Assembly: GCA_043803085.1 (NCBI GenBank)
Contig: JAZDKM010000247.1
Span: 3,315-67,314 of the forward strand
Origin: Planctomycetota bacterium
GTDB lineage: Bacteria; Planctomycetota; Phycisphaerae; UBA1845
Reading direction: 5' to 3'
DNA: 64,000 nt
Positions 9,907 through 53,938 of the stretch are shown here, one piece after another. How positions within the stretch are numbered: position 1 is the stretch's first letter; every line of letters begins with the position of its first letter. Below the pieces are notes generated by a model that made no database searches, was not told the DNA's origin, and saw only the letters and a program-made list of their open reading frames with translations. The position numbers and the translations under genes were made by a program.

Positions 9907-9973
9907 GTACAAACAGCCAGCCGATTCGAGGTCGGGCTGGCTGGATTGACCACGACGATTGAAAGGAATCGCC

Positions 9974-10618
9974 ATGTCGGACGAGATTGTAGCACCTGGG
10001 AAACGTGGAAGTCAATTCATAGACTTGGTGGGCCAGCGGTTCGGTTTGCTTACGGTCATCGCGGAGAGTCAGGTTCGCGCGAAGGACGGTCATGTCCTGT
10101 GGGATTGCGACTGCGATTGTGGGGGAAGGAAAACCATCAGTTCCCATGCTCTCAGGAGAGGCCATACAACAAGTTGCGGGTGCAAATCCTTGAAGCATGG
10201 TCTTGCACGCACCAAAGCCTATAACGCCTGGAAGGGCATGATGCACAGATGCTACAACGCCAAGTGCGCGGCCTATCAAGACTACGGGGCGCGTGGCATT
10301 CTGGTCTGTGACCGATGGCATTCTGTCGAGGCGTTCTGCGAGGACATGGCCGAGGGATGCAGGCCCGGTCTCAGCCTTGACCGCATCGACAATAATGGAC
10401 CCTATTGCAAGTCCAATTGCCGCTGGGCCACACAAAAGCAGCAGTGCAATAACAGACGAAACAATGTGAGTCTCACACATCTCGGCAGAACAATGACTAT
10501 AAGTGAATGGGCCAGAGAACTCGGGATGACCCCGCAGGCCCTCTGGTATAGAATTAGAGGTGGCATGTCCACGGGCGATGCGCTGACCTTGCCCCACCAG
10601 AACGTGCCGCCCAAGTAA
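9974..10618 (+). CDS. HNH homing endonuclease, inverted in the late operon
   Basis: IDLVGQRFGLLTVI...WDCDCDCG...SCGC, YGARGILVCDRW and SLDRIDNNGPYCKSNCRWAT motifs; lower GC than its flanks. Confidence 0.85.
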   Translation: MSDEIVAPGKRGSQFIDLVGQRFGLLTVIAESQVRAKDGHVLWDCDCDCGGRKTISSHALRRGHTTSCGCKSLKHGLARTKAYNAWKGMMHRCYNAKCAAYQDYGARGILVCDRWHSVEAFCEDMAEGCRPGLSLDRIDNNGPYCKSNCRWATQKQQCNNRRNNVSLTHLGRTMTISEWARELGMTPQALWYRIRGGMSTGDALTLPHQNVPPK

Positions 10619-11119: not shown

Positions 11120-13069
11120 TTACGGTTCCCACTTGAACATGTCGTCCGAGCAGTTCGGGTCGTAGCCGCTCACGATGTCCCAGACCCCCGTCGTCGCGCA
11201 GTCGATCTGGACCCGGCAGGCTGGGTCATCCAGCCGCAGGTACTTGCCCGAGAGCTTGAGGCGGAAGATCTCCGAGCCGTTCGGATCGATGATGATGTCG
11301 TTCGCATCGACATCCTGGAACTGATACCGCATCCCCGCCGCCGCCGGCAGCAGGGTGAAGGTGATCGTCCCGGTCGCCCCGCCGTTGGAAAAGGTCTTGC
11401 CGTTGTCGGCGGCGGTCAAGGTGTAGCTCGCGCTCTTGGAGACCCCGCCCGGTACGGTGGGCAGCGGCGTGAAGGTCGCCTTCGTCGTCTCGGTCGCGAA
11501 GTCGCCCGTCGTATAGCACAGCCAGCCCATCGGGTAGCCGCCGTCGACGGCGTCCCGCCAGACGATATCGCCGTCCTCGTAGTAGTAGCTGTCCGGCTGA
11601 TTGTGGTCCCGGTAAGTCGCGATCCAGTCGGCCCCGGCGTCGCCGCTCTTCTGGTAGACGGGGTACGAGGGATAGCCCGCCCCCGCCAGTCCGATCGCCT
11701 GGAAGCCCGGGGCCTTCAGATTGCCCGTCCCGTCCGTGCCCCGGCCCAGCTCGATCACCTTGTCCGTCGAGCCGGTGAAGTCGCCGGCCGTGAACTGGGT
11801 CGCCAGCGAGACGACGGAGAGACAGGAGGCCCCGATCAGGACGTTGTTCTCGAACCGGCAGCCCCCGATCAGCAGGGGGACCGTCATATTGTAATCGACC
11901 ACGGGATCGCCGGGCGACGCCTCATCCTGATGCCCGCCCCAGAGCATATTGGAGCCGAGCGTGGCATCCCCGGCCGCCGCGCCGGCGCCCGTGACGAGAA
12001 AGACATCGCTCTCCGAGGTCCAGCCGAAGAGCTTCACCCGGGCCAGCGTATTGGACAGGATGATGTCGGCGGTCGTATTGGCCCCGAAGGTCACATCGTA
12101 GCCGTTGAACTGCCCCTGATTGACGTCGACCCCGTAGGTAGTAGCGGTCCGCACGGAGCCGCCGTACCAGGAGACCTCCCGGCTGCCGCCGTCGATCCGC
12201 AGGCCGGTCCCGCTGGAATGGATATGGCACTGGATGAAGGTCGTGAAGTCCATCGTCGCGTCCGCGTGCTGGGCGAGCTGGATCCCGTAGGTCGCGCAGT
12301 CGCTCACCCACACGTTCAGGAAGGTATTGCCCTGGCTGGTGACCAGGGGGTCCGTCGTGGTGACCCGGATCCCCGTAACGCCCGCCAGATCGTTCCCGTC
12401 GAGCCGCAGCCCCTCGAACTGGCCGCCCGTCAGGGCCAGCAGGTCCAGCATGATGTCGGAGACCGCGCCGTCCCAGGCGATAGTCGGGGCGCCGAGGCCC
12501 ATCAGGCGAAAGCCGTTGACCTCCGTCGCCCCCGTGCCCACGCTCAGGGTCGCCGTGATCCGGTAGGTCCCCGCCGGCACGAGAACGGCATAGCCGGAGG
12601 CGACGGCCGCGTCGAAGGCCGCCTGCAGGGCAACCGTATCGTCCGTGGTGGCGTCGCCCGTCGCCCCGTAGGGCGGCTGCGTGACATTGAGCCATTGGGG
12701 CGGCTTGGAGCCCATCGTGGTCGCCCCGTCGAAATACGGGATGTCCCCGGCGTTCGGGTCGAGGCCGGCCAGGGCGTCGAGCAGGGCATCATGCTGCTGG
12801 GCGTCGAGCGTCGTCCGGGCCGCCGCCGCCGTGGCGTCGTCCAGGACGGTCCGCATGTAGGAGGAGGTATAGGGCGGGATGGGTGTCCCCGAGCCCGCCC
12901 GGCAGTTAAGCGTCCAGGACAGCAGTAGGAGCAAAGACGCCGCCGTCCGGGCGGCGGAGCTTGATCCCCAGCTCGTCCCGGAGCAGCTTCGCCCGGTTCT
13001 CTTTACGCTTGGCATCGAAATTCTCCGCCTCATGGCGGGCATTGTAGGCAGCCTCGCGCAGGGCCGCAC
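11120..13069 (-). CDS. Tail spike/fibre with pectate-lyase-like beta-helix; true start uncertain (between about 12,860 and 13,070)
   Basis: RTVLDDATAAAARTTL fibre motif and NVTQPPYGATGDATTDDTVALQAAFDAA...VPAGTYRI pectate_lyase_3 signature. Confidence 0.75.
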   Translation of the reverse strand: MRPCARLPTMPAMRRRISMPSVKRTGRSCSGTSWGSSSAARTAASLLLLLSWTLNCRAGSGTPIPPYTSSYMRTVLDDATAAAARTTLDAQQHDALLDALAGLDPNAGDIPYFDGATTMGSKPPQWLNVTQPPYGATGDATTDDTVALQAAFDAAVASGYAVLVPAGTYRITATLSVGTGATEVNGFRLMGLGAPTIAWDGAVSDIMLDLLALTGGQFEGLRLDGNDLAGVTGIRVTTTDPLVTSQGNTFLNVWVSDCATYGIQLAQHADATMDFTTFIQCHIHSSGTGLRIDGGSREVSWYGGSVRTATTYGVDVNQGQFNGYDVTFGANTTADIILSNTLARVKLFGWTSESDVFLVTGAGAAAGDATLGSNMLWGGHQDEASPGDPVVDYNMTVPLLIGGCRFENNVLIGASCLSVVSLATQFTAGDFTGSTDKVIELGRGTDGTGNLKAPGFQAIGLAGAGYPSYPVYQKSGDAGADWIATYRDHNQPDSYYYEDGDIVWRDAVDGGYPMGWLCYTTGDFATETTKATFTPLPTVPGGVSKSASYTLTAADNGKTFSNGGATGTITFTLLPAAAGMRYQFQDVDANDIIIDPNGSEIFRLKLSGKYLRLDDPACRVQIDCATTGVWDIVSGYDPNCSDDMFKWEP

Positions 13070-13349
13070 CCGCCGTCGTTTCAGGGTCCGGATGGAGGTA
13101 CGAGAGGAACTTGGCGCAGGTCTCCGGTCCGACGTTCGGAAAACCCGGCCCGATCTCCAGGATGGGCAGGAAGACGCTGCGGTAGCACAGCCACCTGGCC
13201 AGCATGAAGACGCCCGTCCGGCCGTGGCGGTAGCAAAAGAGGGAGTCCCGCAGGACCTCGTCGGACCCGCAGCGGTTGCGGCACCAGCGGAGGAACTCCG
13301 GGACCCCCGGGATCAGCTCGATCAGTTTCGGATCGTATACGCCCGCCAT
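12906..13349 (-). CDS. Hypothetical phage protein
   Basis: 147 aa, natural-looking sequence in the late operon. Confidence 0.5.
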   Translation of the reverse strand: MAGVYDPKLIELIPGVPEFLRWCRNRCGSDEVLRDSLFCYRHGRTGVFMLARWLCYRSVFLPILEIGPGFPNVGPETCAKFLSYLHPDPETTAGAALREAAYNARHEAENFDAKRKENRAKLLRDELGIKLRRPDGGVFAPTAVLDA

Positions 13350-13430
13350 AGAAGGTTCCTCACGCCAGGCGCATGATCAGCCAGCCGATGGTTACGCCGC
13401 TCACGACACAGACGATAGGCAGCCAGCGGA

Positions 13431-15989
13431 TCATTGCGCCGTCACCGTCACCCCGGCCGCCAGGGGCCGCCAGACCATGTACCAGGTGATATGGTCGCCC
13501 ACGGCCCCGCCGGGATCGGCGGACATCTCCTGCTCGATCATCCCGATAGGGCACCACCAGGTCTTGGCGAAGTTCGTGGACCCGCCCGCCGCCCCGCCCG
13601 TCAGCGGGGTCAGGACGGAGGGATTGGCGGCAGTGAAGACGTAGGTAGTACCTGCCGCATCATCCGTGATCGCCACGGCAGTCGAGTAATCCTTGTCGTA
13701 GGCCGCCCCGGCCGTGGCGTCGGACCATATCTTGCAGGTCGTGACGACGGCCCCGATCAGGACATCGACGTGCCCGGTCAGCGACAGGATCTCGATAGGT
13801 CCGCCCGCCACGGCGAACAGGTCCTGGGTCACCTCGTCCGCCGCGACGGTCGAGACCCGCGGCTGCCAGTAGAGAACGGAATTGACGTCCATATCCGCCT
13901 GGACCTTGTCACCGATCTGGGAGATCCCCGCGAGATCATCGGTGACGGCCTTCACCAGCGTCAGGTTGGCCTCGGTGGCGATCTCCAGATCGGCCCCCGC
14001 CAGCAAGGTCCGCAGCTCCGCCGCCGTGTCCATAGCGGAAGTATCCGCCAGGACGGCCGTCAGGTTGGCCTCGGTGGCGATCTCCAGGTCCGCTCCGGCG
14101 AGGAGCGTCCGCAGCTCGGCGGCCGTGTCCATGGCGGCGGTATCGGCCAGGACGGCCGTCAAGTTCGCCTCGGTCGCCAGCTCAAGATTGCTGCCGACGA
14201 GCAAGGTCCGCAATTCCGAAGCGCTATCCATGGCGGCGGTGTCGGTCAGGATGGCCGTCACATTGGAGGCGATGGTGGAGTTGGCGTCCATCGTCGCGTG
14301 CACGGTGTCGGCGATCTCGTCGGTGGCCCCGGCGGAGATCTCGCTGGCCGTGATGGCATTGGCCGCGATCTCGGCCGCTCCGATGGCGTCGGTCGCGATG
14401 GCGTCGGCGGCGATGGCCGCAGAGGCAAAGGTGGCGGCGTCGATGGCCCCATTGGCGATTTCGGTCGCCCCGATAGCATCGTTGGCAATCTCAGCGCTGG
14501 TGATGGCGTCGGCCGCGATAGCGCCGGCATCGATGGCGTCATCGGCAATCTCGCTGGCCGTGATCGCGTTGGCCGCAATCTCGGCTGCCCCGATGGCATC
14601 GGTAGCGATAGCCCCGGCGTCGATCGCGTCGTCCGCGACCTCCGCCGCCGCGATAGCGTTGGTGGCGATAGCCCCGGCGTCGATTGCCCCGTCGGCGATC
14701 TCGCTGCTGGTGATAGCATCCGCCGCAATGGCCCCGGCGTCGATCGCGTCGTCCGCGATCTCGCTGGCGCCGATGGCGTTGGCCGCGAGCTCCGCTGCCC
14801 CGATCGCATCCGTGGCGATGGCGGTGGCGTCGATGGCCGCTGACGCGAAGGTAGCGGCGTCGATGGCGGCGTCGGCGATCTCGGTGGCTGTAATGGCCCC
14901 GTTGGCGATCTCGGCGGTGGTAATCGCATCAGCGGCGATAGCGTCGGCGTCGATGGCGGCAGTCGCAATGGCCGCCGCATCAATGCTGCCGGCCCCAACT
15001 GTCGCCACTACGCTCTGGGATTCCGTATCGCCGTCCCCGATGGTCTTGTAGACGTTGCCCATCAGGCCCAGGCCGCCGGTGTCCACGTAGTTGCCACTCG
15101 TAATGAAGGTGCAGTCGCGGATCATGCCGAGGTTACCGGTCCCCTGGGCCTCGATCCCGAATTCGTCCGTATTGGCGTTGTAGAAATCGCAGCCCTTGAC
15201 CAACACCTTCGTGAGGGCCTGGTCGGAAAAGACGCAGGCCGTGGCCCAGTCGCCGTAGAAGATGGACTCCTCGAACCGCAGGCCGACGACGGCGCCGTCG
15301 CCGATATCGACCGCCACGGTCGCCCCGGCCGCCGCGGCACTGGTCCAGCGGCAGCGGAGGAAGGCCAGGTCGTTCGCCTCGGTGACGACATCGACGGCCG
15401 TCAGGAACTCGTAGGCCGCCGTGGCGCTATCGAGCCACTCGCAGTCGATGAACGTGACGTTATCCGCCCCGTCCTCGATCTGGACACCGACGACCACCGC
15501 GCTGATCCCGGCCTCGAAGGTCAGGTTCTGGAGCGTGGCGCCGTCGCCCGTGCGGCCGACGACGAACGTGCCGTCCGTGTCCGTGAAGGTGAACTTCGGG
15601 CGGGCGGGCCCGTAGCCCAGGCCGATGATCGTGATCCCGGAGACGTCGACGTCGACGCCGCCGGCGGCGGCGAAACTCTCCGCGTGGTACGGGGCGACGA
15701 CGATCACATTGTTGTTGCTCGCGGTGCAGCGGCCGACGGCGTAATCGAGCGTGGCGAACGGGCGCTGGAAGCCCTCCCCGTGCCAGCCGTCCGCGGCATC
15801 GCTGGCCTCCGCGGCGGTCGAGCTCACGAAGAACACGTTCGCATTGGACTTGAGGATCTCGGGCACCGCCGACAGGTCGTAGGGCCCGGTGAAGCGGTAC
15901 TGGTTCAAGAGGTTGTGGGCCGTCTCCCCCAGCGCGGGCGGGAGCCGGAGCAGGGCGAGCAGGCAGGCGAATAGGAACACACGTTTCAT
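13431..15989 (-). CDS. Capsid-adjacent beta-helix/repeat protein with Sec-type signal peptide
   Basis: Start MKRVFLFACLLALLRLPPALG|E; PFATLDYAVGRCTA beta-helix cap; AIDAGAIAAD/AITASEIADD repeats. Confidence 0.75.
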   Translation of the reverse strand: MKRVFLFACLLALLRLPPALGETAHNLLNQYRFTGPYDLSAVPEILKSNANVFFVSSTAAEASDAADGWHGEGFQRPFATLDYAVGRCTASNNNVIVVAPYHAESFAAAGGVDVDVSGITIIGLGYGPARPKFTFTDTDGTFVVGRTGDGATLQNLTFEAGISAVVVGVQIEDGADNVTFIDCEWLDSATAAYEFLTAVDVVTEANDLAFLRCRWTSAAAAGATVAVDIGDGAVVGLRFEESIFYGDWATACVFSDQALTKVLVKGCDFYNANTDEFGIEAQGTGNLGMIRDCTFITSGNYVDTGGLGLMGNVYKTIGDGDTESQSVVATVGAGSIDAAAIATAAIDADAIAADAITTAEIANGAITATEIADAAIDAATFASAAIDATAIATDAIGAAELAANAIGASEIADDAIDAGAIAADAITSSEIADGAIDAGAIATNAIAAAEVADDAIDAGAIATDAIGAAEIAANAITASEIADDAIDAGAIAADAITSAEIANDAIGATEIANGAIDAATFASAAIAADAIATDAIGAAEIAANAITASEISAGATDEIADTVHATMDANSTIASNVTAILTDTAAMDSASELRTLLVGSNLELATEANLTAVLADTAAMDTAAELRTLLAGADLEIATEANLTAVLADTSAMDTAAELRTLLAGADLEIATEANLTLVKAVTDDLAGISQIGDKVQADMDVNSVLYWQPRVSTVAADEVTQDLFAVAGGPIEILSLTGHVDVLIGAVVTTCKIWSDATAGAAYDKDYSTAVAITDDAAGTTYVFTAANPSVLTPLTGGAAGGSTNFAKTWWCPIGMIEQEMSADPGGAVGDHITWYMVWRPLAAGVTVTAQ
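13962..14260 (-). repeat. Three 99-bp (33-aa) intragenic tandem repeats
   Basis: NLTAVLADTAAMDTAAELRTLLAGADLEIATEA units with 99-nt periodicity. Confidence 0.85.
14330..14990 (-). repeat. Intragenic 30/60-bp (10/20-aa) tandem repeats
   Basis: About 20 units of AIDAGAIAxD / AITAxEIAxx. Confidence 0.85.
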
Positions 15990-16121
15990 GGTCGGATCTC
16001 CAATTTTCGATGGTTGCCCGTCGACGGGAAAATCAAACATCTTTCACCCATCAGACTTTCTTTACAAAGCCGGGAGCGCCGGCCAGGCCGGACGCCCCCG
16101 GTCGAGCTTCCAAAGCGTCAC

Positions 16122-17762
16122 TCACACGAGCAGCGCGATGCCGGTCGTCTCCGTGATCCCGGAGACCTTGATCCCCTGCGGGTAGATGGGCACCAGCAGG
16201 GCGAACCGGATCCAGGGCGTGCCCGTGATCAGGTTGGGCGTCCCGTTCGAGTTCGGGTGCTCCGGCACCTCGATGCCCGGATAGCCGAGCAGCGGGCCGA
16301 GGAACTGGATGCCCTCGGCGAACCCGTTTTTCTGGCTCCCGACGATCATCGGGGTGTACATCTTGAGGTTCTCCGGCGAGATCGCCTGTCCGTACAACGT
16401 CTTCGCCAGGCAGTAGGGACTGGTCCACCACTGGTAGGTCCCCTCCGGCGTGACGTAATTCGAGAGCGTCCAGCCGCCCTTGACCTCGAAGGGCAGGTTC
16501 GTGCGGTTCCAGGTACTGGTCGCCGTCGAGGACCGCATCTCCGCCTTCATCGCGCCGATCACCCCGCCCGTCGTGATCAGGGCGTTGATCTTGACGCGGG
16601 GCGAGCGCTCCGCCGCCAGCCGGAGCAGCTCATCGAGCGTGTCCTCGGTCAGCGGCCCGGCCAGGTTGTTGATTATGAGCGATTTGAACTGGGGGAACTC
16701 CGCCAGGTCGAGGCCCTCGGATCCCGCCGCCCCGCCCAGGATCACGCCGCTGTCCGCCATCCAGTCGTTCAGGCCGTTGGTCAGCCAGGGCCGCGTCGCG
16801 GCGATATACGTGCTGGCCGCCCGGGGGCAGATCCAGTCATAGTTGGCCACGCCGTTGGTCCCCTGCCAGCCGGTGATGTCGTCGAAGGCCGTGATCGCCT
16901 CGGTCGTACCCGTCCCGCGGGCCACGCCGTTCACGCTGATCGTGTTCGTCAGCCGGTCCACCTTTGCGACCGTCAGCTGGACGTGCAGGCCGGCCGCGGT
17001 GTAATTGCGGACGTCCGTGCCGTCCGTCGCGACCCCGTCCTGGAGGGTGCCCGCGACGGTCGCCGAGCCGCCGGAGTTGGCGACGATATCGAGCTCCATG
17101 CCCTCGATGAAGTTGTTGATCGCCCCGTACTTCTCATCGATCACGATGTCCACGAAGTTGGCGTTCGTGGTCCCGGCCGCGATATAGTGCGTCGCCTTGG
17201 CGAACGAGGTGATCCGGGACAGGACGGTCACCTTGTAGCTGCTGGCCCCGGTCGCCCGGTGGGCGAAGTAGGAGATCGCATCCTGCCGGCGGGTCATCTC
17301 GGCGCAACCCTGCATGTCCTCGTAGAGGACCTTGAACTGCATGGCGCTGAGGTTCTCGGCGAGCTTCCACTGGAGGGGAATGCCCATATTGCCGATGTTC
17401 GCGTGGATCTGCAGCTCCCGCGTGAACCAGCCGACGTGCGGCGCTTCCGCCGCCGAGGGGATGGGCGAGAGCAGGCCGTCGGCGTTCGAGGCGTCGGTGA
17501 ACCGGCCCTGCGTGCCGATGTCCACGACGGCCGCGCCCAGCGGACTGGTCGGCCGCGTCATGCCGGCGATCCCCTGCCGCCAGCCGTGTTTGACCTTGAA
17601 GAGCCGGCCGATGTCGCGCTGGTTGCCGTCGGTCATCGTGATGCCGCTCTTGGTGCGCTGGGCGTACTTGAGGATCGGCATCTGCTCCTCCTCCGCCTGC
17701 ATCAGCGCCTGGGGAAAAGGTTCCTTGATGAGGGTGTTCAAAGTGGAAGTCAAATCTGCCAT
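16122..17762 (-). CDS. Major capsid protein A (large, with probable insertion domain)
   Basis: 546 aa, directly after portal and scaffold; N-terminus MADLTSTLNTLIKE and capsid-like C-terminus (QGIKVSGITE). Confidence 0.7.
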   Translation of the reverse strand: MADLTSTLNTLIKEPFPQALMQAEEEQMPILKYAQRTKSGITMTDGNQRDIGRLFKVKHGWRQGIAGMTRPTSPLGAAVVDIGTQGRFTDASNADGLLSPIPSAAEAPHVGWFTRELQIHANIGNMGIPLQWKLAENLSAMQFKVLYEDMQGCAEMTRRQDAISYFAHRATGASSYKVTVLSRITSFAKATHYIAAGTTNANFVDIVIDEKYGAINNFIEGMELDIVANSGGSATVAGTLQDGVATDGTDVRNYTAAGLHVQLTVAKVDRLTNTISVNGVARGTGTTEAITAFDDITGWQGTNGVANYDWICPRAASTYIAATRPWLTNGLNDWMADSGVILGGAAGSEGLDLAEFPQFKSLIINNLAGPLTEDTLDELLRLAAERSPRVKINALITTGGVIGAMKAEMRSSTATSTWNRTNLPFEVKGGWTLSNYVTPEGTYQWWTSPYCLAKTLYGQAISPENLKMYTPMIVGSQKNGFAEGIQFLGPLLGYPGIEVPEHPNSNGTPNLITGTPWIRFALLVPIYPQGIKVSGITETTGIALLV

Positions 17763-17846: not shown

Positions 17847-18836
17847 TTAGCCCGTTGCCGCCATCTGCTCGCGGGCCAGCTTCTGGGCCGCCCGCTTGGC
17901 CATCTCTTCCGGCCAGGTGGCGTCGAACTTGGGGATTGCAGTCAAATCTTCGTCGGATAGAACCTTCAGCGGCGCATCATCAGGCGACCTCCCGCCCAGC
18001 AAAATGGGTTGGGGAAGAGCCTTGTCCAGGATGGTCTGCGGATTCATGGTTTCCACGAACCGCGCGGCGATAGCGGGGATTTCCCCCAGGATATCGCCGC
18101 CCTCTCCGGAACCGCGCAGCTCTACGATTCGTCCACGTGCCTGCTGATCTACAGTGCCTATCGCAATCTTGTCATACGCCGCCATGATCGCTTTCTTGTT
18201 GGCGTCGCTGCCAAGCTTGGCTTCTACGGCCTTGCGTTTCGGATCGTTGGCAAGGGCCTTCGTGATATTTTCCTTGAGGATTTTTTCGCCCTCCGCGTCG
18301 AGCAGCTCGCCCACGAAGGCCCTGTGATGCTTCGTGGGCAGCAAGAGCTCCCGGACTTCGGGGTCCAGCTCCACCAGCTTGACTTGCCGCGGCTGGTCGG
18401 TCGCCGCGGCCCGCGGGGCGGGCTTTTTGTCCTTGCCGTTTTTCCCGTCGTCGGCGGCGGCCAGGAGGGCCTCGGGGTCCGAGACCAGTCGGCTCGCCAC
18501 GAGCATGATGTCGGCGGGGTCGGCGTCCTCGCCGTTGTCCTGGGCGGCCTTGATCCGGTCCGCCGCGTCCACGACCTTCAGGGCATCCTTCGCCTTTTTG
18601 ACCGCCTCGTCCGCCCCGCCCGCCTTCGCCTTGCCCTGGACGGCGTCCCAAACGCTGAATTCCTGCTCCCGGCCGGCGATCTGGTGCTTGACCTTCAGTT
18701 GCTCCATCGCCGTGCGGGAAAGCGGCTCTTTCGTATCGAAGGCAATCGTCCCCGTGGCCGCCTCGACGTGCTCGAGGTTGGCCTTGAGGTACTCTTTCTG
18801 CTCGTCCGTCAAGGGTTTGGTGAAGTCGATGTCCAT
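17847..18836 (-). CDS. Capsid scaffolding protein A
   Basis: 329 aa, charged and helical; LKVKHQIAGREQEFSV motif; lies between portal and capsid. Confidence 0.65.
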   Translation of the reverse strand: MDIDFTKPLTDEQKEYLKANLEHVEAATGTIAFDTKEPLSRTAMEQLKVKHQIAGREQEFSVWDAVQGKAKAGGADEAVKKAKDALKVVDAADRIKAAQDNGEDADPADIMLVASRLVSDPEALLAAADDGKNGKDKKPAPRAAATDQPRQVKLVELDPEVRELLLPTKHHRAFVGELLDAEGEKILKENITKALANDPKRKAVEAKLGSDANKKAIMAAYDKIAIGTVDQQARGRIVELRGSGEGGDILGEIPAIAARFVETMNPQTILDKALPQPILLGGRSPDDAPLKVLSDEDLTAIPKFDATWPEEMAKRAAQKLAREQMAATG

Positions 18837-19776: not shown

Positions 19777-21795
19777 TCATCCCTGTAATGCCCCCGGCAG
19801 GGGCATCATCAGCGTCTGCTCCGCCGCCTCTTCGAGCGGCGGCATCCCCTCCGGCGCCCGGCCCATCCCGTCCGTCTTGTGGCGGTCGATATGGTCGAGG
19901 ATTCGCTGCCGGACGACCGGGGCGGCCATCGAGAACTTGACCGTCGCCACGAGCTCCATGTGCACCAGGATATGGACCGGGTGCAGGTCGCCTTCGGCGG
20001 AGAACAGGACGCCCACCTGGTCCTCCGGGCCTTCCGGGACGCTCTGGCCATCGTGATAGAGCAGGATGTTCTCCAGGCGGGCCTTTTTGTAGCTCTCCCA
20101 TTCCTGCTCATTCGAGACGGGCAGATCAAGGTTCATGATCCGGGCCTTGATCCGATACTGCATCGGCGTGATCAGGCCCGCCCTGAGGTGGTCTTTCAGT
20201 TCCAGGATCTGCTGGCTCTTGGAGATCGGCATCATGCTCTGGACCGTCACGTCCACCTCGTCCGGGTGGGCGATCGGGTTGTCGGCGAGCGCGATCGTGC
20301 CCTGCTTGGGGTCATAGACGATCCCGGCCAGCGAATCGTCCAGCATGGTTACGGCGACGACGTCCTGATCGCTCCAGGTCGTCAGGTCCTTGGAGAGGGC
20401 GGCGCGGTAGATATCGCTGAAGCCCTCGGCGATGGCCGCGGCGTCGGGCGACAAGGGCACGTTCGAGGTCTCGATCAGGGTCCCCAGTCCGGCGGCGGAG
20501 TCCATCCGGCCCGGGGCGTCCCCGCGCATCATGGCCTGCGGCTGGTTCGCCAGCCGGTCCGAGAGCTCCGTCCCGATCTTGACCATCTGGACGGGAAAGC
20601 CGCCGGAGTTGAACGGCTGGAGCTGGATCACGTTCTGGTTGGCCGGCGTGAGCTGGTCCCATTCATAGGGCTGGAACTTGCGGCCGTCCTTGGCGGTCAC
20701 GAGGGCGTTGCGGGTGAGGCCGAAGTTGGTCGGGACCAGCGTGGTCCCGTAGAGGTCGAGCTCCCGGACGTTCTGGAACGACCGGCCGATCGCCCCTTCC
20801 AGCTCGGAGTTCAACGGGATCTGCAATTCCATCCAGGACCGGCCGTAGAAGCCGCCCACGTCGATACTGTGGATCGTTGTGACCGGCCGGCAGCGGCGGG
20901 CCAGGGTGAAGCCCTCGCGGAAATAGAGCTTGTCGCCCACGAAGACGATTTGCTCGGTCAGATAGTCCTTTTCGTCCCAGAGGAAGCAGTTGCCCAGCCA
21001 CAGGACGTCCATCTGGTCCGTCTTGCCGGCGTCGGAGCCGTTGGCCCTCTGCCGGCCGGTCCCCGGGAAGTCGCCGTCCTCGAGGAAGGCGTCGATGGAG
21101 TGGCCCACGAGCGCGACCTCCGCGATATCGCCCGGCAGGTCGCCGCGGGCGACTGTCGTCCGCTGGGCCTCGCCCAGCGCCCCGCGCTTCGGGGCCGCCC
21201 CGCGGAACATCCGCTTGACCTCCTCGACCGGGACGCGGCGCCGGATGAGCAGGCCGTGGATCTGCGACGGGGTCGCCACCTGGGTGGGGATCGGGGTGAG
21301 CTGCCAGGGCAGGGTCACGCGGAAGTCCTGCTGCTGGCTGTCGTCTGGATTCTCCCAGAGCGATAGGCCCACCGTCCCGTAGCACAAAAAGGGCGGCAGC
21401 AGGGCCCGCTGCGCCTTTTTGACGCGGGAGGGCGGGAAGGAATGCCCCAGGACCGCCTGGTCGATGGCCGCCGCCCGCTGGCCGTCCAGGGATTCGTTGC
21501 GGCGGACGACGCGGGGCGACAGGTCCATCCCGAGCAGCCGGCCGAGCTGGGTCTGGTACTTGGCCAGCAGCTCCTCGTAGACGAATTTCAGCCGCCCGGC
21601 CTTGTCGGTATAGGTCGCGGAGACCGTGCCGCGCGCGAAGTTCAGCGTGAGCTGGCGGATCCCCTGGATATAGGCGTAGGTCCGGCTCCAGTGGGTCTTC
21701 CGGTACAGCCGGGCCTCCCGGCCCCGCGCCACGAGCTGCTTGTACGTGGTCTCGGCGTCCTTCGTCTCGGCCGGAAAGATCGATTCTGCTGCCAT
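19777..21795 (-). CDS. Portal protein A
   Basis: 672 aa between terminase and scaffold; GFYGRSWMELQIPLN..., MMRGDAPGRMDSAAGL portal-type motifs. Confidence 0.8.
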   Translation of the reverse strand: MAAESIFPAETKDAETTYKQLVARGREARLYRKTHWSRTYAYIQGIRQLTLNFARGTVSATYTDKAGRLKFVYEELLAKYQTQLGRLLGMDLSPRVVRRNESLDGQRAAAIDQAVLGHSFPPSRVKKAQRALLPPFLCYGTVGLSLWENPDDSQQQDFRVTLPWQLTPIPTQVATPSQIHGLLIRRRVPVEEVKRMFRGAAPKRGALGEAQRTTVARGDLPGDIAEVALVGHSIDAFLEDGDFPGTGRQRANGSDAGKTDQMDVLWLGNCFLWDEKDYLTEQIVFVGDKLYFREGFTLARRCRPVTTIHSIDVGGFYGRSWMELQIPLNSELEGAIGRSFQNVRELDLYGTTLVPTNFGLTRNALVTAKDGRKFQPYEWDQLTPANQNVIQLQPFNSGGFPVQMVKIGTELSDRLANQPQAMMRGDAPGRMDSAAGLGTLIETSNVPLSPDAAAIAEGFSDIYRAALSKDLTTWSDQDVVAVTMLDDSLAGIVYDPKQGTIALADNPIAHPDEVDVTVQSMMPISKSQQILELKDHLRAGLITPMQYRIKARIMNLDLPVSNEQEWESYKKARLENILLYHDGQSVPEGPEDQVGVLFSAEGDLHPVHILVHMELVATVKFSMAAPVVRQRILDHIDRHKTDGMGRAPEGMPPLEEAAEQTLMMPLPGALQG

Positions 21796-23553: not shown

Positions 23554-25497
23554 TCACCCGATCACCTGCGGCTGATCCCAGACATTGACGAAATCCTCTT
23601 TTTCATGTTCCTCGTTATCATACGCCTGTTTCACGAGCAGGGCAAGGTGCTCCTCCCGGATTTCCGCCAGGGGCAGGCCGACGAGCCCCTCGCCGCCCGG
23701 CAGGAACGGCTTGCCCTGGCGGATCAGGCTGCACAGGTCCGCCGCCGGGTCGCGGGGTTGGGAGGGCCCCGCCGTCCCCCGTCCGTGCGGGACCCATTTC
23801 GTCATCGCGAGCGTGTCGATGATATCGTCGTAGCGGAGCTCCCGGAGGTCCTTCGTGAAGTATTGGACCTGGCGCCACATCTCATTGAAGGGCCACTTGT
23901 GCTTGTAGGAGATCGGGAACTTCACCATGCCGCGCGGCAGGGGGTACTCGCCCCAGAGCTTGATCCGGCCGCCCTTATCCAGCTCGTCCGCCCCTTTCGG
24001 ATAGGTCAGCGGGATGATCGCCGGCCGCCAGTCGAGCGGGATCAGGCCCTCCGCTTCCCCCTCGTAGATCCGCCGCGTGATCGCGTCCACGAGCAGTTGC
24101 TGGAGCGAGACCGCCTCCGGGGCGATGATCTGGACCCGCCAGGCGCAGCAGAACCTCAGGACGTGGTCCAGGAACGGGGTATCGGGCATCCGGCCCGCCC
24201 AGCAGTCGAGGACCCACTGCACGTTGCGGGCGTCGAAGCCCGAGATCACGATGCACTTCATGTCCGAGACGCTGGTCCGCGTCTTGGCGTAGTCGATCGT
24301 CGCGACCCGCAGCAGGGCGTCGAAGTACTCCTTCGCCGGCGCGCGGGCCACCTGCCAGGTCTTGCGGCCGTCCCGGCCGTAGCCGGTGAAGTAGTGATAA
24401 TCGACCGCCGCCTCCGGGTGCGGCAGGTGGGCCGCCAGCCGGTCATCGAGATTGTCCGGCAGCTTGCTGAGCCGGTACTCGTTGGCGACCGGATCGATAG
24501 TGAGCAGCCGCGCCCCCTCCGCCTGCGGCTGGTTCATGAACTCGGCGTCGAAATGCTCGGCCATCGTGGTCCGCAGCAGCTCCAGGTGGGCCACGCTGAA
24601 CCGCTCCGGCCAGGTGGAGGCGATCACCTTGCCCGTCTCGGGGTCCTTGATCGCCCCGGACTGGACCCGCCGCATCCAGTTCTTGTAGCGCGGGTCCTTC
24701 GAGAAGCACACGTGGTACAGGTAACTGCGGGCCCCGAGCATGGTCCCCGGCCAGAAGAGCTTCATGTACTGGGGGTTGAGCATCGGCAGGATCACCCGCG
24801 TGATATGCTCCTGGAGCCGGCGCGACAGCTCCGTCAGCCGCTCCTGGACGTTCGATTCCGGGTCGTATTCGGGATCGTCCAGGATGTACCAGGAGGTCCG
24901 CGTCCCGCGCTGGCGGCTGCCGACCGTGAGCTGCTCCAGCAGGGAGCCGTTGTTGAGCCGCATGTGCTGCTTGTTGTAGACCCGGCCGGAGCCGCGGGCC
25001 GGGACCAGCTTGCCGAAATCGGCCGTGATCCGCTCGTTCTCCTCGAGCTGGGTCATTACGGATTCCGCCTTGATCGCCGCCAGTTTCTCCGAGGCGCTGG
25101 AGACGACCACCTCGCGGTAAGGGAAGCAGACGATCCCGCGCAGCGGTGTCTCGCGGGCGAAGATCGTGCTCTTGCCGCCGCCCCGGGTATAGGCCTCCGC
25201 GCAGAAGGGGTACAGGGCGAAGTCGTTCAGCATGTCGATATGGCCGGGGGCCGGGGGCAGCAGGCCGCTCTCCCCGTAGAACTTCGGGCCCTCCGGGGCC
25301 AGGTAGTAGTTGCGAAAGAACAAGTGGCCCGCGATGAAGCCGAGCGCGAACCGCTCCGGTTGGCCGTCCCGGCCGGGGCGCCTCACGACGGTTTCGTCCC
25401 GGCAGACGGCGACCCGCGCCTGCCGCCGGCCCTCGGCGCTCAGGTCCTCATAGTCCGGCGGCAAAGGCCAGAACGGATTATTCAGCTTGGGGAACAT
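23554..25497 (-). CDS. terL: Terminase large subunit
   Basis: Walker A (YTRGGGKST), Walker B (YILDDPE), coupling motif (WPGT), RNase H-like nuclease (IDYA...SD; YDDIIDT). Confidence 0.9.
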   Translation of the reverse strand: MFPKLNNPFWPLPPDYEDLSAEGRRQARVAVCRDETVVRRPGRDGQPERFALGFIAGHLFFRNYYLAPEGPKFYGESGLLPPAPGHIDMLNDFALYPFCAEAYTRGGGKSTIFARETPLRGIVCFPYREVVVSSASEKLAAIKAESVMTQLEENERITADFGKLVPARGSGRVYNKQHMRLNNGSLLEQLTVGSRQRGTRTSWYILDDPEYDPESNVQERLTELSRRLQEHITRVILPMLNPQYMKLFWPGTMLGARSYLYHVCFSKDPRYKNWMRRVQSGAIKDPETGKVIASTWPERFSVAHLELLRTTMAEHFDAEFMNQPQAEGARLLTIDPVANEYRLSKLPDNLDDRLAAHLPHPEAAVDYHYFTGYGRDGRKTWQVARAPAKEYFDALLRVATIDYAKTRTSVSDMKCIVISGFDARNVQWVLDCWAGRMPDTPFLDHVLRFCCAWRVQIIAPEAVSLQQLLVDAITRRIYEGEAEGLIPLDWRPAIIPLTYPKGADELDKGGRIKLWGEYPLPRGMVKFPISYKHKWPFNEMWRQVQYFTKDLRELRYDDIIDTLAMTKWVPHGRGTAGPSQPRDPAADLCSLIRQGKPFLPGGEGLVGLPLAEIREEHLALLVKQAYDNEEHEKEDFVNVWDQPQVIG

Positions 25498-25585
25498 CGT
25501 TGCATTGATGAGGGAGCAGCTTGACAATGACAGGAGCGAGATTCCGTTTACTCCCGAACCAGGGCGCCAGCGCCTTGACCTTCAT
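25478..25585 (-). pseudogene. Remnant N-terminus of a Dam-like adenine methyltransferase
   Basis: MKVKALAPWFGSKRNLAPVIVKLLPH then stop; matches the P-W/Y-x-G-x-K start of D12-class MTases. Confidence 0.6.
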
Positions 25586-27935: not shown

Positions 27936-28454
27936 TCAACGGAAGCGGTAGACGACGCCGAAGGTCGTCAGCAGGTCATCCTCGAGGGCGCTGCTGTTCT
28001 CCGGGGTCAGCCATTCCGTCCGCAGGTAGGGCTGGATGGCGCTGCCCGGCCGGAACCGCAACTCCGTGCCGGGCAGGAAGAGGAAATCTTCACCGTCCGG
28101 CTCGTAGAGCAAAGCGAGCGTCCCGTAGGCCTCGACCGGGGCGTCCACCGGGGGCAGCCATTCGCCCGGCAGGACCCGGTCCAGGGCCCCCGCGACGAGG
28201 TCGCCGATCCGGAACTGGACGATCAGGCCCGCAGCCACGTTTTCAGCGGTCGTCTCGGGAATAGCCGAATCGCTCATCACCATAAGGCCCAGTCCCCCGT
28301 TCGGGTCGGGACTGTAGAGCGCTGCGAGCTCGCTGACCTCGTAGTTCGAGCCGGCCGCGACGGACCATTCGCCGCCCTGGCAGCCCGCCAGGAGCAGGAC
28401 CGCCGCCCCTACCATCATCACCCACGACCTCCACTTCGTCACTTGCGTCCACAT
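27936..28454 (-). CDS. Putative outer-membrane beta-barrel lipoprotein
   Basis: Lipobox LLLAGC, alternating beta strands and C-terminal FGVVYRFR beta-signal. Confidence 0.65.
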   Translation of the reverse strand: MWTQVTKWRSWVMMVGAAVLLLAGCQGGEWSVAAGSNYEVSELAALYSPDPNGGLGLMVMSDSAIPETTAENVAAGLIVQFRIGDLVAGALDRVLPGEWLPPVDAPVEAYGTLALLYEPDGEDFLFLPGTELRFRPGSAIQPYLRTEWLTPENSSALEDDLLTTFGVVYRFR

Positions 28455-46147: not shown

Positions 46148-47155
46148 CTATGACGCTTTGCTCACGTATCCGCCCGCCGCGACCTGGGCCGCCTCGGTGA
46201 CCAGCGACAACCATTTGTGTCTATCGTACTGGCGCGTCTGCTGGACGCTCGCATGGCCCGCCAGCTGGGCCACTCGGATACTGTCGATCCCGGCGTCCAG
46301 CATCATCGTGATGAAGGCGCTCCTCAATTCGTGGAACCGGCGCGGTTCCCTGATCCCCGCCCGCCGTTGCAGCGCCCGGAAGCTCCGCGGATGGTTCCCT
46401 TGCAGGTCCCGCAGGGCGCCCCAGTGGCGTGGCCCCGCGAGCCGCTTGCGAATGAACCGCTCCTCGACGCACAGATAGCCTTCCGGCTCTCCGTGCAGCT
46501 CCTTGATCCGGGCGGCGACCAGTTCCTGCAGGGCGACGATCCGCCCGTCGAAGGCCATCGCCGCCGGCAGTCCAATCAGCCGGGCCTTGTGGCCCTTAGC
46601 GCCCCAGGGCAAGGTCTTGTCCCCGCCCTTTTTGTGCTTCAACAGGACGTGGGCCCCGTCCGGGTCGCCGAGCCGGACGTCGCAGACCTGGATCGCCTGC
46701 ATCTCCCCGCGCCGGCAACTGAGCAGTCCGAAGCAGAGCTGGAGCTGCTCCACCGCGCTCGCCACGGCCATCAGCCGGGCCAATTCCCGCGCGGTGAACG
46801 TCTCCCGGGGCGGCTCCTCATCGACTTTCACAGGGCCGATGAAGCCGAACGGATCGACCGTGATATCCCCGCGCTTGCGCAGCCAGGCCCAGAAGGGCCG
46901 AAAATTGTTCAAGTAGCCGTTCACGGACACAGCGCTGCGGTCCTGGCCGAGCTTCTCGCGATAGTCGTCCGCCAGGGCACTGGTCACACAGCGAAGCGGC
47001 AGGTCGAATCCGACCTCGCCGTCGGGCGACCGCACCGGCTGTCCGAACCATTCGAGAAAAAAGCGGCAGGCCCGCCGTTTCATGTCCACGGACGCGGGCC
47101 GCAAGCGATTGCGGGACAGGTAAAGCTCGAACATGGCTTGTACCGACTGTTCCAT
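46148..47155 (-). CDS. int: Tyrosine integrase/recombinase
   Basis: SAM-like N-terminal domain (SVNGYLNNFRPFWAWL); catalytic CRRGE, FHELRS, LAGHAS, TRQY. Confidence 0.9.
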   Translation of the reverse strand: MEQSVQAMFELYLSRNRLRPASVDMKRRACRFFLEWFGQPVRSPDGEVGFDLPLRCVTSALADDYREKLGQDRSAVSVNGYLNNFRPFWAWLRKRGDITVDPFGFIGPVKVDEEPPRETFTARELARLMAVASAVEQLQLCFGLLSCRRGEMQAIQVCDVRLGDPDGAHVLLKHKKGGDKTLPWGAKGHKARLIGLPAAMAFDGRIVALQELVAARIKELHGEPEGYLCVEERFIRKRLAGPRHWGALRDLQGNHPRSFRALQRRAGIREPRRFHELRSAFITMMLDAGIDSIRVAQLAGHASVQQTRQYDRHKWLSLVTEAAQVAAGGYVSKAS

Positions 47156-47280
47156 ATACACTCCTTTCCGTCGGCCCGTGCAAGCCGACCCCAGTGTATC
47201 CTGCGGACAGTCGCCGGACAAGCTATGTCATGTCTCACTCGTACTGGTTATTGAGTTGTCAAAGAGCGCCCGCCCTTCGC

Positions 47281-48793: not shown

Positions 48794-50569
48794 TCAGAAG
48801 CTCTCCACCAGCGCCTGGAACGGCCAGATATTGACGACGTCGCCCGCCTCCGGGGCCGCCGGCAGACTCTCATAGAGCGTGACGACCCGCCCGGCCGTAT
48901 AGAGCCTGATCCTGCCCCAATAAGTCTGCCCCGTCGTGGCGTCCGTAAACGTGAGGATCGTCCCCCGCGGATAGGCGTTCGCCACCGCCGGGAACCCGCT
49001 CGACAATGTGAAGCTCCGGGCGGTGCTCGCCGTCGCGACCGTCCCGGCCTTCAGGGCCAGGCTGCCCGTGACGACGGTCCCGATCTCCGTGTGAATGGCG
49101 GAGAGGCCATAGGTCGCGTGCGTCAGCAGGTCGTACAGGTCGTTCACGTCCCGCGCCAGGTAATCGAGATAGCCCGCCCGCACGGCCGTCAGCCGCCCTT
49201 CCAGCGAATCGACCATCCCTTCCAGGACGGCCAGGTCCGCCGCCAGGGTATCGCCGGCGTTCGGGTCGCCGATCCTGGCCTCGATAGCGTCCACCATCCC
49301 TTCCAGCACGGCTAAGTCCGCCGCGATGGACGCGGCGTTCGGGTCCCCAACGCGGTCGTAGATGTCGTTCACGTCCCGCGTGATCCGGGTGTTCGTAGTG
49401 CCGATATTCGTGGCGAGCGTCGTGGTATAGCCCTGGGCCGTCATCGCGCTCTGCACGTCCTCGACGGACAAGCTCGGCGTCGGCGTGGAGGCGTCGGAGA
49501 CCTGACCGCCCGCCGGGGTGAACTTGTAGTAGGTGGTCGTGTCCGGCGTGATCGCGCCCGCCCAGACGCCGCTGATGACGATGGTATCGTTGGCGTCGTA
49601 ACTGTCCGTGACGGCGTAAACGGTCGAGCCCGCGCCGGTCCCGCTGACCAATTGCACCAGGCCCGTCAGGTTGTCCGCCCCCACGTCCCCGGAGGCCAAC
49701 TGGATCGTATTGGTCGTACCAGCCTGGGCCACGCCCTCGGCCGCCAGGGCCGACGTCGGGGCGTACTCGATCTTGTAGGTGGTCGTGGCATTGGGCGCTG
49801 AACCCGGCCAGGTGTCCAGGATCGTCAGGGCCTTCGTCGTGGAATTGTAGGCCACGCCCGTCCGAATCGCCCAGGCGCCCGTGCCGGTGAGCAGAGTAAC
49901 GGCGCAGGGCGTGAAGGCGTCATCGGCCCCCGGCGTGTCGGCGGCCAGGACGATCGTATTGGTGGTCCCGCCCGCTTGGGCCGTCCCGGTGATCGCCAAC
50001 GGGTCCCCGCCCCCGCCCCTTTGCACATACCACGCCCCGGAGTGTTTCTTCTTATTGTTCGTAAGACTGTCGTCCCACCACTCATCGATGAAGCTGGTGG
50101 CCAGCTCGTCGCTCGTGAAGGCGTTCGAGGCGATGGTAGTGGCCGTGATCCCGCCCGCCGCGAGAGATACCGTAGCGCTGCTCTGGTCGAATACGTGGTA
50201 GGCGCTGGCGTTTCCGAACGTCGGGATGTAGAACACGGCGTCGCCGAACAAGGGAGTTGCTGTGTCGTCATTGACATCGACCGTTACGACGGCGGCGGTC
50301 ATCTCGGTATTCGTGAGTACGAGCGAGAAGGTCCGGCCGAGGTCCGTCACGGCGTTCGTGGCCCGCGCCCCGCTCACCCCGTCCTGAAAGACCCACACGT
50401 CCGCCGCCGCCGGGGCGGTCTCGTAGACCCGCCAAGGCGAGTTGGAGTCGTAGATAGTGAAGTAGAGCGTGTATTGGGTCGCGTACTTCGCGGGCGGCAG
50501 CCAGGTCGCCGGGTAGGCCCCAGAAGCGATAATCCCCAGGACAATTCCAACACCAAGTATCCGTTTCAT
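48794..50569 (-). CDS. Signal-peptide-bearing fibre-like protein
   Basis: MKRILGVGIVLGIIASGAYP; Ig-like N-terminal domain, three GTAQAG-type beta domains, coiled repeats (GDPNA..IAADLAVLEGMVD). Confidence 0.7.
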   Translation of the reverse strand: MKRILGVGIVLGIIASGAYPATWLPPAKYATQYTLYFTIYDSNSPWRVYETAPAAADVWVFQDGVSGARATNAVTDLGRTFSLVLTNTEMTAAVVTVDVNDDTATPLFGDAVFYIPTFGNASAYHVFDQSSATVSLAAGGITATTIASNAFTSDELATSFIDEWWDDSLTNNKKKHSGAWYVQRGGGGDPLAITGTAQAGGTTNTIVLAADTPGADDAFTPCAVTLLTGTGAWAIRTGVAYNSTTKALTILDTWPGSAPNATTTYKIEYAPTSALAAEGVAQAGTTNTIQLASGDVGADNLTGLVQLVSGTGAGSTVYAVTDSYDANDTIVISGVWAGAITPDTTTYYKFTPAGGQVSDASTPTPSLSVEDVQSAMTAQGYTTTLATNIGTTNTRITRDVNDIYDRVGDPNAASIAADLAVLEGMVDAIEARIGDPNAGDTLAADLAVLEGMVDSLEGRLTAVRAGYLDYLARDVNDLYDLLTHATYGLSAIHTEIGTVVTGSLALKAGTVATASTARSFTLSSGFPAVANAYPRGTILTFTDATTGQTYWGRIRLYTAGRVVTLYESLPAAPEAGDVVNIWPFQALVESF

Positions 50570-50571
50570 AA

Positions 50572-51810: not shown

Positions 51811-52397
51811 TAGGAACCCAGATAGGTCACATTCCAGGTGACAGTTAGGGTATCGGCGGCCCCTTTGTTGATGGCGCCGGAGAATACGGCAATTGAGAAC
51901 GTCTGCGTCGCGTCCGCCTCACCTGCGTCGGTCGTATTGGCACAGATCGAAACGCGGTTGATATTCGAGTTCGTTGCTTCGCCCGCGCCCCATTGGTTGC
52001 GGAATTGGCAGATGTTCGCTGCCGCTCCTTGTTTGGGCGTGGTATCGTCCAGGGCCTGGGCCGATCCTGAAACATAATCGCCGACGGCAATGTAACTGCC
52101 GGCCCCGCTCTTGGTGGCCGTCGTGGTCGCCGTGCCCAGTTTCATACCCCAAGTCGTATAGGCGGCTGTGTAGATCGCGGACTTGGCAAAGTCATCGCCC
52201 TTGTCAGTGACAATGTTGCGAAAGACCTGGCGCTCGATGAGATTGCCATACTGATCGTGCCTTTCAACGACGACCTCGCCCTTCAAAGAGGTCTTATCGG
52301 TCTTACCTGAAATGGGGACCGCTTTTTGGCTCACGCCATAGGTCAGCGACAGGGCGCTAAGCGCGTATACGGCCGTCAAAAATATTCCACGTTTCAT
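51810..52397 (-). CDS. Signal-peptide-bearing phage tail-fibre-base-like protein
   Basis: MKRGIFLTAVYALSALSLTYG; LKGEVVVE...NIVTDKG...MKLGT...INKGAADTLTVTWNVT. Confidence 0.65.
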   Translation of the reverse strand: MKRGIFLTAVYALSALSLTYGVSQKAVPISGKTDKTSLKGEVVVERHDQYGNLIERQVFRNIVTDKGDDFAKSAIYTAAYTTWGMKLGTATTTATKSGAGSYIAVGDYVSGSAQALDDTTPKQGAAANICQFRNQWGAGEATNSNINRVSICANTTDAGEADATQTFSIAVFSGAINKGAADTLTVTWNVTYLGS

Positions 52398-52440
52398 TTT
52401 TTCCCTTTCGATTCTCTATGGAACTATTACTCTTTTCCGG

Positions 52441-53253: not shown

Positions 53254-53371
53254 CGTTTCGCTCCTATCCAGCGGGCCCGCACGTAGTTGCGGCCCCAGCG
53301 GACCAGTTGCGCTGTCCCTTCGACCAGCCGGTCCAGAATCACCCGGCTTATGAATTGACCTTTGGGCCGTC

Positions 53372-53827: not shown

Positions 53828-53938
53828 CGCACACGTCCCTTTCCAAGAGCGGGGACCGCCGGGGAGGAGGACTTGTCCGCCGGAGGGAGGGCGGACTTAA
53901 AGGGCCGGCGGCCCCCAAGACCAGGAAAGAACCTCCTT

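Follow-up and report, generated by a model that had tools for sequence, protein, structure and literature searches.

The window analysed here, a stretch of 64,000 nucleotides (G000:C247:3315-67314) of an 83,090 bp contig binned with a genome of the Planctomycetota, holds genes of two phage-like elements, a left and a right one. In the left element the gene directly after the probable major capsid gene encodes an 852-residue protein that opens with a hydrophobic leader and continues into a beta-helix, and a tail-spike-like gene further downstream very probably opens with a leader as well. Our analysis makes it reasonably probable that these are genuine Sec-type (signal peptidase I) leaders, carried by appendage-type proteins of the sugar-binding or sugar-cutting kind of a tailed phage. 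The post-capsid gene and its parts are as follows.

13431-15989, minus strand: post-capsid gene P0001, 852 aa (leader, beta-helix, repeat fibre and C-terminal beta-sandwich)
15927-15989, minus strand: 21-residue leader of the Sec/signal peptidase I type, MKRVFLFACLLALLRLPPALG, with a predicted cut before ETAHNLL
15054-15857, minus strand: right-handed parallel beta-helix, residues ~45-312, with conserved H-x-E and PFATLDYAVGRCT cap motifs and invariant columns
14337-14958, minus strand: Ala-rich penta/decapeptide repeats of the A-I-x-A-x type (Tandem Repeats Finder, TRF; DNA periods 15, 30, 60 and 210)
13959-14260, minus strand: 33-residue (99-nt) repeat in three copies (TRF 3.1 copies, 80% matches)
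13434-13928, minus strand: C-terminal beta-sandwich, ~165 aa (alignment A4), a domain that leader-bearing and leaderless members both have

The leader of the post-capsid protein

The minus-strand open reading frame (ORF) 13431-16040 encodes MKRVFLFACLLALLRLPPALG followed by ETAHNLL from an ATG at 15989, which has GGAG 8 nt upstream and is the Met at which the public gene call P0001 (MKRVF) also begins. The equivalent Met has an in-frame stop upstream of it in three related loci, at a distance of 4 codons in L128, 7 in L121 and 8 in L125, and a later start would lose conserved sequence, so the leader must be translated. An earlier note on this DNA had claimed that the gene after the capsid gene opens with a signal peptide followed by E, and had raised the possibility that the real start lies downstream of the hydrophobic leader; the ATG, the GGAG, the public gene call and the upstream stops bear out the first, and the stops in the three relatives speak against the second.

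Leaders were called with a simple home-made heuristic of hydrophobicity and charge, by which MKRVFLFACLLALLRLPPALG has a hydrophobicity of 3.11 and an n-region charge of +2. Single matches to the heuristic are common: on the other contigs of the bin, 313 of 2149 long frames (14.6%) have a leader-like start. The argument therefore rests on conservation across homologs. Residues 1-340, searched by word index against 5.8 billion proteins, gave 26 homologs. As called, 23 of 27 proteins (the window's own counted) pass the heuristic, while P0003 passes at an internal Met. The leader is present in 24 of the 26 informative database homologs, P0026 and P0027 (35-42% identical) being without it; P0022, a chimera without the leader region, was set aside from the count. 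It is also present in all nine related metagenome phage loci that include the N-terminus. By both counts the leader is conserved in close relatives, the point on which the earlier note had made its claim depend.

Leader statistics were drawn from an alignment of 20 close homologs, in which identity is 0.30 in the leader as against 0.66 in residues 22-60 and 0.62 in residues 61-310. The distance from the start of the leader to the aligned junction is 20-23 residues in 18 of the 20 (28 in P0020 and 37 in P0021), the leader of P0003, counted from the internal Met, being 21 residues long. Position -3 is Ala in 18 of 19 sequences and position -1 is Ala or Gly in all 19, P0021 having been left out of these counts because its junction is unaligned. 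A basic n-region (MKR, MRR or MTRK) begins 19 of the 20 aligned homologs, again with P0003 read from the internal Met, and P0020 has MFAVSKR; an uncharged h-region with a mean Kyte-Doolittle value of 2.7-3.7 over 10 residues is found in 23 of the 27 database proteins as called. Conservation as seen in the alignment is physicochemical (low identity, kept length and the -3/-1 rule), the pattern that would mark substrates of signal peptidase I. The core-type proteins, that is, the capsid, the portal, gp512, gp421 and gp147, do not pass the heuristic; leaders are confined to peripheral-type proteins.

Comparison with more distant loci suggests how the leader arose. Leader state of the beta-helix family member was scored in 21 IMG/VR loci, with the following result.

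Leader present: 2 loci (L005 and L012)
Without leader: 17 loci (all other scored loci)
Leader state undeterminable: 2 loci (L014 and L020)

In L008, L010 and L011, leaderless sister genes in the same slot begin at the mature helix; these syntenic sisters begin MLIVDAINRYGS, MLLKNLIDKYSS and MNTELLEVLNRYS, and align to the mature ETAHNLLNQY of the window protein, which argues that the leader was added before an existing N-terminus. A candidate in-frame leader in L011 ('KRIWGW...') was rejected as a spurious tblastn extension, the L011 gene starting MNTELLEV without a leader. In a FastTree analysis of 46 beta-helix domains, 29 leader-bearing members fall in two clades and 17 members are leaderless. 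Dropped before tree building were L010 and L021 (too short) and P0022, the near-duplicates P0010, P0018, L007, L009, L025, L121 and L123, together with L014, L020, L125, L127 and L128, which were partial or unclear. From the tree and the alignments, the leader appears to be a stable inherited trait of a large clade.

The family is large. A profile search of 1.84 billion representatives gave 5822 family members (clusters at 50% identity, E up to 1e-3), of which the 150 best included 139 new proteins; by a stricter heuristic 59 of these 139 have leaders, a few more being borderline. Leader-bearing relatives range in G+C from 0.47 to 0.66 and stand behind at least three capsid families, namely phrog_283 (L005), phrog_1357 (L131) and the window's own. 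A profile scan of genome contigs with alignment A2 found no relative, and no cultured relative was found in the phage collection, where one distant match, MW202647, is annotated as a lacto-N-biosidase. In P0043-P0048 and others, proteins of 1000-1800 residues carry 2-7 tandem beta-helix modules, and most of these giants are leader-bearing.

Fold, genomic position and the spike-like gene

An AlphaFold2 (AF2) model of the 852-aa protein built with 20 sequences has a right-handed beta-helix at residues 50-310 with a predicted local distance difference test score (pLDDT) of 85-90, a helical middle of low confidence and a confident C-terminal beta-sandwich. Foldseek searches of PDB and BFVD matched the helix to tailspikes, polysaccharide lyases and pectin methylesterases, and PHROG tail-fibre families match the protein solely in the Ala-rich repeat region. 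No Pfam family scored above cut-off for the 852-aa protein; PF13229 is precomputed on three homologs. An N-terminal particle-binding domain was not found in it, the helix beginning ~25 residues past the leader. Modelled alone, the C-terminal domain reached an AF2 pLDDT of 78 and a predicted TM score (pTM) of 0.76, and Foldseek gave it weak, mixed matches, among them VP2 of infectious bursal disease virus (IBDV, a birnavirus) and a galectin-like lectin, with TM at most 0.33. No relationship of this domain was found to the small gene after the right capsid gene (BLASTP E 0.37) or to small post-capsid proteins (hhalign probability below 1%). Overlapping the stop of the 852-aa gene (ATGA) on the minus strand, at 13360-13434, is a 24-codon hydrophobic ORF, MIRWLPIVCVVSGVTIGWLIMRLA, of which no equivalent was found in the relatives L120, L122, L123 and L124.

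Upstream of the 852-aa gene lie the following genes.

16122-17762, minus strand: gene of the probable major capsid protein, left element; 546 aa, counted from Met 15 of its ORF
17847-18836, minus strand: scaffold-like gene, left element
19777-21795, minus strand: portal-sized gene, left element
23554-25581, minus strand: terminase, phrog_38

Gene 16122-17762 is in synteny with the terminase, the portal-sized gene and the scaffold-like gene upstream of it. A protein-language-model look-up grouped its product with viral clusters, one of which has SU10_MCP in 15% of its members. No sequence match to it was found in Pfam, PHROG or PDB, and its capsid profile run against PDB sequences and Pfam gave nothing meaningful. 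Synteny and the language-model lead to viral clusters together suggest that this is probably the capsid gene. Neither the probable capsid nor the portal (19777-21795) matched a Pfam or PHROG family, and the head genes of the left element would seem to be an undescribed lineage, for which the lead to SU10-type capsids comes from the language-model look-up alone.

Homologs of the capsid protein, 26-74% identical, occupy the same slot in 12 loci. The 852-aa homolog directly follows the capsid homolog in four IMG/VR loci (L008-L011; capsid 26-33% identical) and in eight metagenome loci (L119-L125 and L128; capsid 46-74%). Of ten more IMG/VR loci, seven have a PHROG major head protein of other families (phrog_283 or phrog_371) as the ORF next upstream, one has an HNH gene there and two have an ORF without a match. 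In L131 a leader-bearing member lies downstream of a portal gene (phrog_156), a capsid gene (phrog_1357) and a gene for head decoration (phrog_20658). The beta-helix had been described in the earlier note as typical of post-capsid genes, a description with which the seven of ten major head proteins and the capsid homologs in 12 loci agree.

Beyond the 852-aa gene the left element continues with two genes that very probably overlap each other.

12906-13349, minus strand: conserved 147-aa gene (gp147), with homologs in L008, L120-L124, L127 and L129
11120-13015, minus strand: tail-spike-like gene with a pectate-lyase-type beta-helix; likeliest start ATG 13015, alternatives TTG 12934 and ATG 12856
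12896-13015, minus strand: candidate 40-residue spike leader, MPSVKRTGRS...AASLLLLLSWTLNCRA, before GSG

The 147-aa gene, which has no match in Pfam or PHROG, sits between the two leader-bearing genes, and the candidate spike leader runs over its 3' end in another frame. The spike matches PF12708 (8.5e-7; 29.4 bits against a cut-off of 27) and tail-spike PHROGs; some 50 residues of fibre motif stand between leader and helix, and no N-terminal particle-binding domain was found. The hydrophobic stretch ARTAASLLLLLSWTLNCRAG is in frame with the spike ORF ending at 11120 and overlaps the 3' end of 12906-13349 in the other frame. We first took the spike leader to be an out-of-frame artefact of the upstream gene, a reading that related loci then countered. 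On that reading the 'leader' would be the untranslated out-of-frame 3' end of 12906-13349, and the spike would start at ATG 12856 (MRTVLDD...). The overlap itself is in its favour, as are the third-position G+C, which does not separate the two frames at 12900-13070, the absence of a Shine-Dalgarno sequence before all candidate starts except ATG 13015 (GGAG 7 nt upstream), and the database homologs of the spike, which share just the PF12708 helix start and are too distant to show the start codon.

Three related phages with a spike-like gene after the gp147 homolog (L120, L122 and L123) argue otherwise. The N-termini compare as follows, each leader being given before the residues that come after it.

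Window: MPSVKRTGRS...AASLLLLLSWTLNCRA, then GSGTPIPPYTSSYMRTVLDD
L120: MNMNIVKRTPSCC...ALLSCLWVLCLTEPAVAQ, then PPFLVSPFVSDYMRGLFDS
L122: ...MVALSCLLACLHSTALGQ, then ISIFPYSTDYARTLLDD
L123 (G+C 0.49): ...TKMVALSLILACTHSPAIAQ, then ISIFPYTTDYMRGLLDD

In all three relatives a hydrophobic stretch with A-x-A before Q is kept ahead of a conserved PYxxxY(M/A)R. The motif, P[YF]xx[SD]Y[MA]R, is kept ahead of the window Met at 12856, a position at which L122 has Ala. Between 12906 and 12856 none of ATG, GTG and TTG occurs in the window, and the spike would therefore start at TTG 12934 (the public gene call, P0028) or further upstream. Against a start at 12856 there is also the likeness of P-Y-T-S-S-Y, just upstream of that Met, to the fibre-repeat context FTSFARTLLDD in P0034, and in L123, at its G+C of 0.49, the frame is open for 55 codons upstream of the Met position. 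We consider a start at 12856 somewhat unlikely and translation of the spike leader quite likely. The signal-like stretch that the earlier note had seen before the fibre motif thus finds support in L120, L122 and L123 as far as its translation goes, the start being probably either ATG 13015 or TTG 12934.

The slot that holds the spike is variable, and the spike is an insertion into it: no spike is present in L008 and L124, and other leader-bearing genes occupy the slot in L122 and L123. Between the gp147 and gp512 homologs, L122 (9773-14640) and L123 (9816-13634) have different sets of leader-bearing genes, with a spike-like protein of 1321 aa in L122 and of 711 aa in L123 plus several small leader proteins, as in a swappable cassette. 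The end of 12906-13349 contains, at 12938-12956 on the minus strand and directly before the TTG candidate start of the spike, a hairpin of seven G:C pairs and then TCTTTGCTCC; this element may attenuate expression of the variable cassette.

The second element, the host and the question of convergence

The contig belongs to a bin of 4.7 Mb in 481 contigs (90% complete, 5.7% contamination), the RpoB of which is nearest to Phycisphaerae and other Planctomycetota metagenome-assembled genomes (66% identity over 623 residues); G+C is 0.631 in the contig and 0.639 in the bin. The two elements are laid out as follows.

46148-47227 onwards, minus strand: left element, in the order integrase (46148-47227), Erf/exonuclease and helicase, terminase, portal-sized gene, scaffold-like gene, 546-aa gene
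Left element, continued: 852-aa gene, 147-aa gene, spike, membrane protein, HNH gene (opposite strand), more large structural genes
Right block: portal (phrog_332), protease, then capsid gene 58046-59050 (phrog_212)
48794-57487, minus strand: right block, six consecutive leader-bearing genes, starting at 57487, 53827, 53253, 52397, 51810 and 50569

The six genes of the right block, with MKR-type leaders, follow the right capsid gene (58046-59050) and a 156-aa gene. Six leader genes in a row are not chance, given the bin background of 14.6% (313/2149). The right capsid (phrog_212) is unrelated to the left one. The two elements are nevertheless not independent: C247:1-485, at the far end of the left element, and window 53287-53771, in the right block, share 94.4% identity, and one of the six leader genes encodes a 151-aa protein with a 93% identical counterpart in the left element. 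Other left/right protein pairs were compared and none were similar. The duplicated 485-nt segment comprises the 5' end of a LamG-like gene and the 151-aa leader gene, and the end of the contig falls within the left copy. Two phages may have been joined here by the assembly, or else the two elements have a terminal cassette in common. Two otherwise unrelated right-block proteins, 50572-51810 and 52441-53253 (minus strand), have a common C-terminal tail, NWW[FW][HR]RR[TN], which could be a sorting or docking tag.

From two capsid lineages with the same trait, the earlier note had argued for host-driven convergence rather than accident. The second half of this claim stands: the leader is an inherited trait of a clade, follows the -3/-1 rule and recurs in the six-gene right block, none of which looks accidental. 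The first half is weak. The two elements share a module, three other genomes of the phylum have leaderless family members in loci that resemble prophages, and leader-bearing relatives span G+C from 0.47 to 0.66. The trait looks like a widespread phage strategy, vertically kept and horizontally exchanged, and not one imposed by this host. The capsid family of the left element was found in none of 400 other searched genomes of the phylum, so that integration in the host is unsupported in that way.

Two further genes of the left element stand apart from the leader question. The HNH endonuclease gene at 9959-10618 (plus strand; phrog_374, E 5e-70), within the structural operon, resembles a homing endonuclease insertion and is absent in L124. 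The early or lysis region holds, at 27936-28454 (minus strand), a gene for a small protein that has a textbook lipobox (LLAG before C) and may be a spanin or an exclusion lipoprotein.

Proposed export, assembly and known systems

Tailed-phage particles, fibres included, are regarded as assembling in the cytoplasm. On the reading that we favour, of genuine Sec-type leaders, a leader would have been gained before an ancestral leaderless N-terminus and retained by a large clade. Late in infection the host Sec machinery would move the leader-bearing proteins to the periplasm, where they would fold and act, and the core particle proteins (capsid, portal and the conserved downstream structural genes), being without leader, would remain cytoplasmic. 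The exported proteins might then join finished particles at lysis, once the inner membrane is breached, or they might be free enzymes or lectins that act on host envelope sugars, in progeny release or receptor removal. Sec export, cleavage, and the site and purpose of action outside the cytoplasm are steps that we infer. That a broad set of tailed phages route host-recognition appendages, including a head-fibre-like protein, via Sec and dock them at lysis is a possibility that we hold tentatively and consider doubtful.

Several points weigh against reading these segments as export leaders, or against parts of that reading. The leader heuristic used here is crude. That the family nearly always lies beside the capsid gene points to a role on the particle, one difficult to reconcile with export ahead of assembly. 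By its fold matches the C-terminal domain could be of the capsid-binding or of the sugar-binding kind, and the 'capsid' label for 16122-17762 is without a family or structure match. The window spike leader is the weakest of all (hydrophobicity 2.03 against 2.7-3.6), its hydrophobic part overlaps a conserved gene and may owe its character in part to that overlap, and in L120 GTG codons 3' of the hydrophobic stretch may serve as starts. Finally, the host link is binning alone, because both contig ends are phage-like and no tRNA was found on the contig.

Two other explanations of the leader-bearing proteins have been considered. They may be lysogenic-conversion cargo, that is, secreted enzymes or adhesins expressed in the lysogen that alter or exploit surface polysaccharide for the host and are unrelated to particles. 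Leader, catalytic beta-helix, linker and beta-sandwich make up an ordinary secreted glycan enzyme architecture, the gp147-gp512 slot is variable (empty in L124, with differing leader genes in L122 and L123), and the six genes of the right block lie at the element end, adjoining an integrase. However, the 852-aa gene is within the late operon, on the same strand as its neighbours and in a fixed place in 12 related loci, leaderless homologs stand in the same slot behind several capsid families, and a scan of 12700-16300 found no sigma-70-like promoter as against 0.6 expected, other promoter types being outside the scan. We judge cargo to be distinctly unlikely. Very improbable is an N-terminal segment that does not serve as an export signal, being an uncleaved helix (for membrane tethering of assembly intermediates or trimer nucleation) or a mis-set start: cytoplasmic assembly of tailed phages, the capsid-associated role suggested by the family position and the helical residues 2-14 of the AF2 model would suit it, but the start is fixed by the stops upstream in relatives, the layout is a full n/h/c one in which -3 is Ala and -1 is Ala or Gly in 18-19 of the 19 sequences, the sequence drifts freely (identity 0.30) as a structural contact would not, and basic residues before the helix would, by the positive-inside rule, place the rest of the protein outside the cytoplasm.

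Known systems offer partial parallels to the export reading. In the cultured Cellulophaga phage phi18:3 (NC_021794, Pachyviridae), gp085, gp086 and gp087 are annotated as structural from tandem mass spectrometry (MS/MS) proteomics, and by our heuristic these three, in one block, all have leader-like starts as against none of the nine other MS-annotated proteins. Like the window proteins they are large late tailed-phage proteins with a Sec-type leader, among other structural proteins without one; unlike them they belong to a phage of a Bacteroidota host, are not capsid-adjacent and have no sequence similarity to the window proteins. Going by the record annotation, they can serve as a precedent for leader-bearing proteins ending up with particles. 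Residues 50-310 have the fold of beta-helix tailspikes and depolymerases (CBA120 TSP2/TSP3, Acinetobacter phage Fri1 gp49 and the Klebsiella K1 lyase), with Foldseek matches to tailspikes at E 5e-4 to 1e-2 and probability up to 1.00, a likeness at the level of fold. Known beta-helix tailspikes have an N-terminal particle-binding domain and no leader, whereas in the window protein the helix follows ~25 residues past a leader and the gene is next to the capsid gene. That position after the capsid gene is shared with decoration and cement proteins such as the trimeric cement protein of KHP40 (7dou) and the atadenovirus beta-helix protein LH3; the full AF2 model matched 7dou_4 with TMt 0.54 and E 1.3e-2, and LH3 also weakly. 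We know of no capsid decoration or cement protein with a leader. Cleavable leaders and the host Sec pathway are used by exported phage endolysins (Lys44 of Oenococcus phage fOg44) and by the filamentous coat proteins pIII and pVIII. These are lysis enzymes or the coat of membrane-assembling phages, whereas in the window the leaders sit on fibre- or spike-like proteins, and the phage is a tailed one with terminase and portal. In the portion of the literature open to full-text searching, we found no paper on Sec leaders on fibre- or spike-type tailed-phage proteins. The tailspike-like beta-helix kind of protein is already known; what seems to be new is its conserved, added secretion leader.

About four in ten of the 139 classified top members of this capsid-adjacent, fibre- or enzyme-like family carry a leader. 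If they are exported, phages may complete their particles outside the cytoplasm, and tailed-phage assembly would not be purely cytoplasmic; alternatively, sugar-targeting proteins would be secreted before lysis, for the phage's own release or for stripping of receptors. In either case fibre and depolymerase genes from metagenomes would have to be read differently, as would the host range predicted from such genes, and there would be an explanation for some 'structural' genes that give no soluble protein with the native N-terminus.

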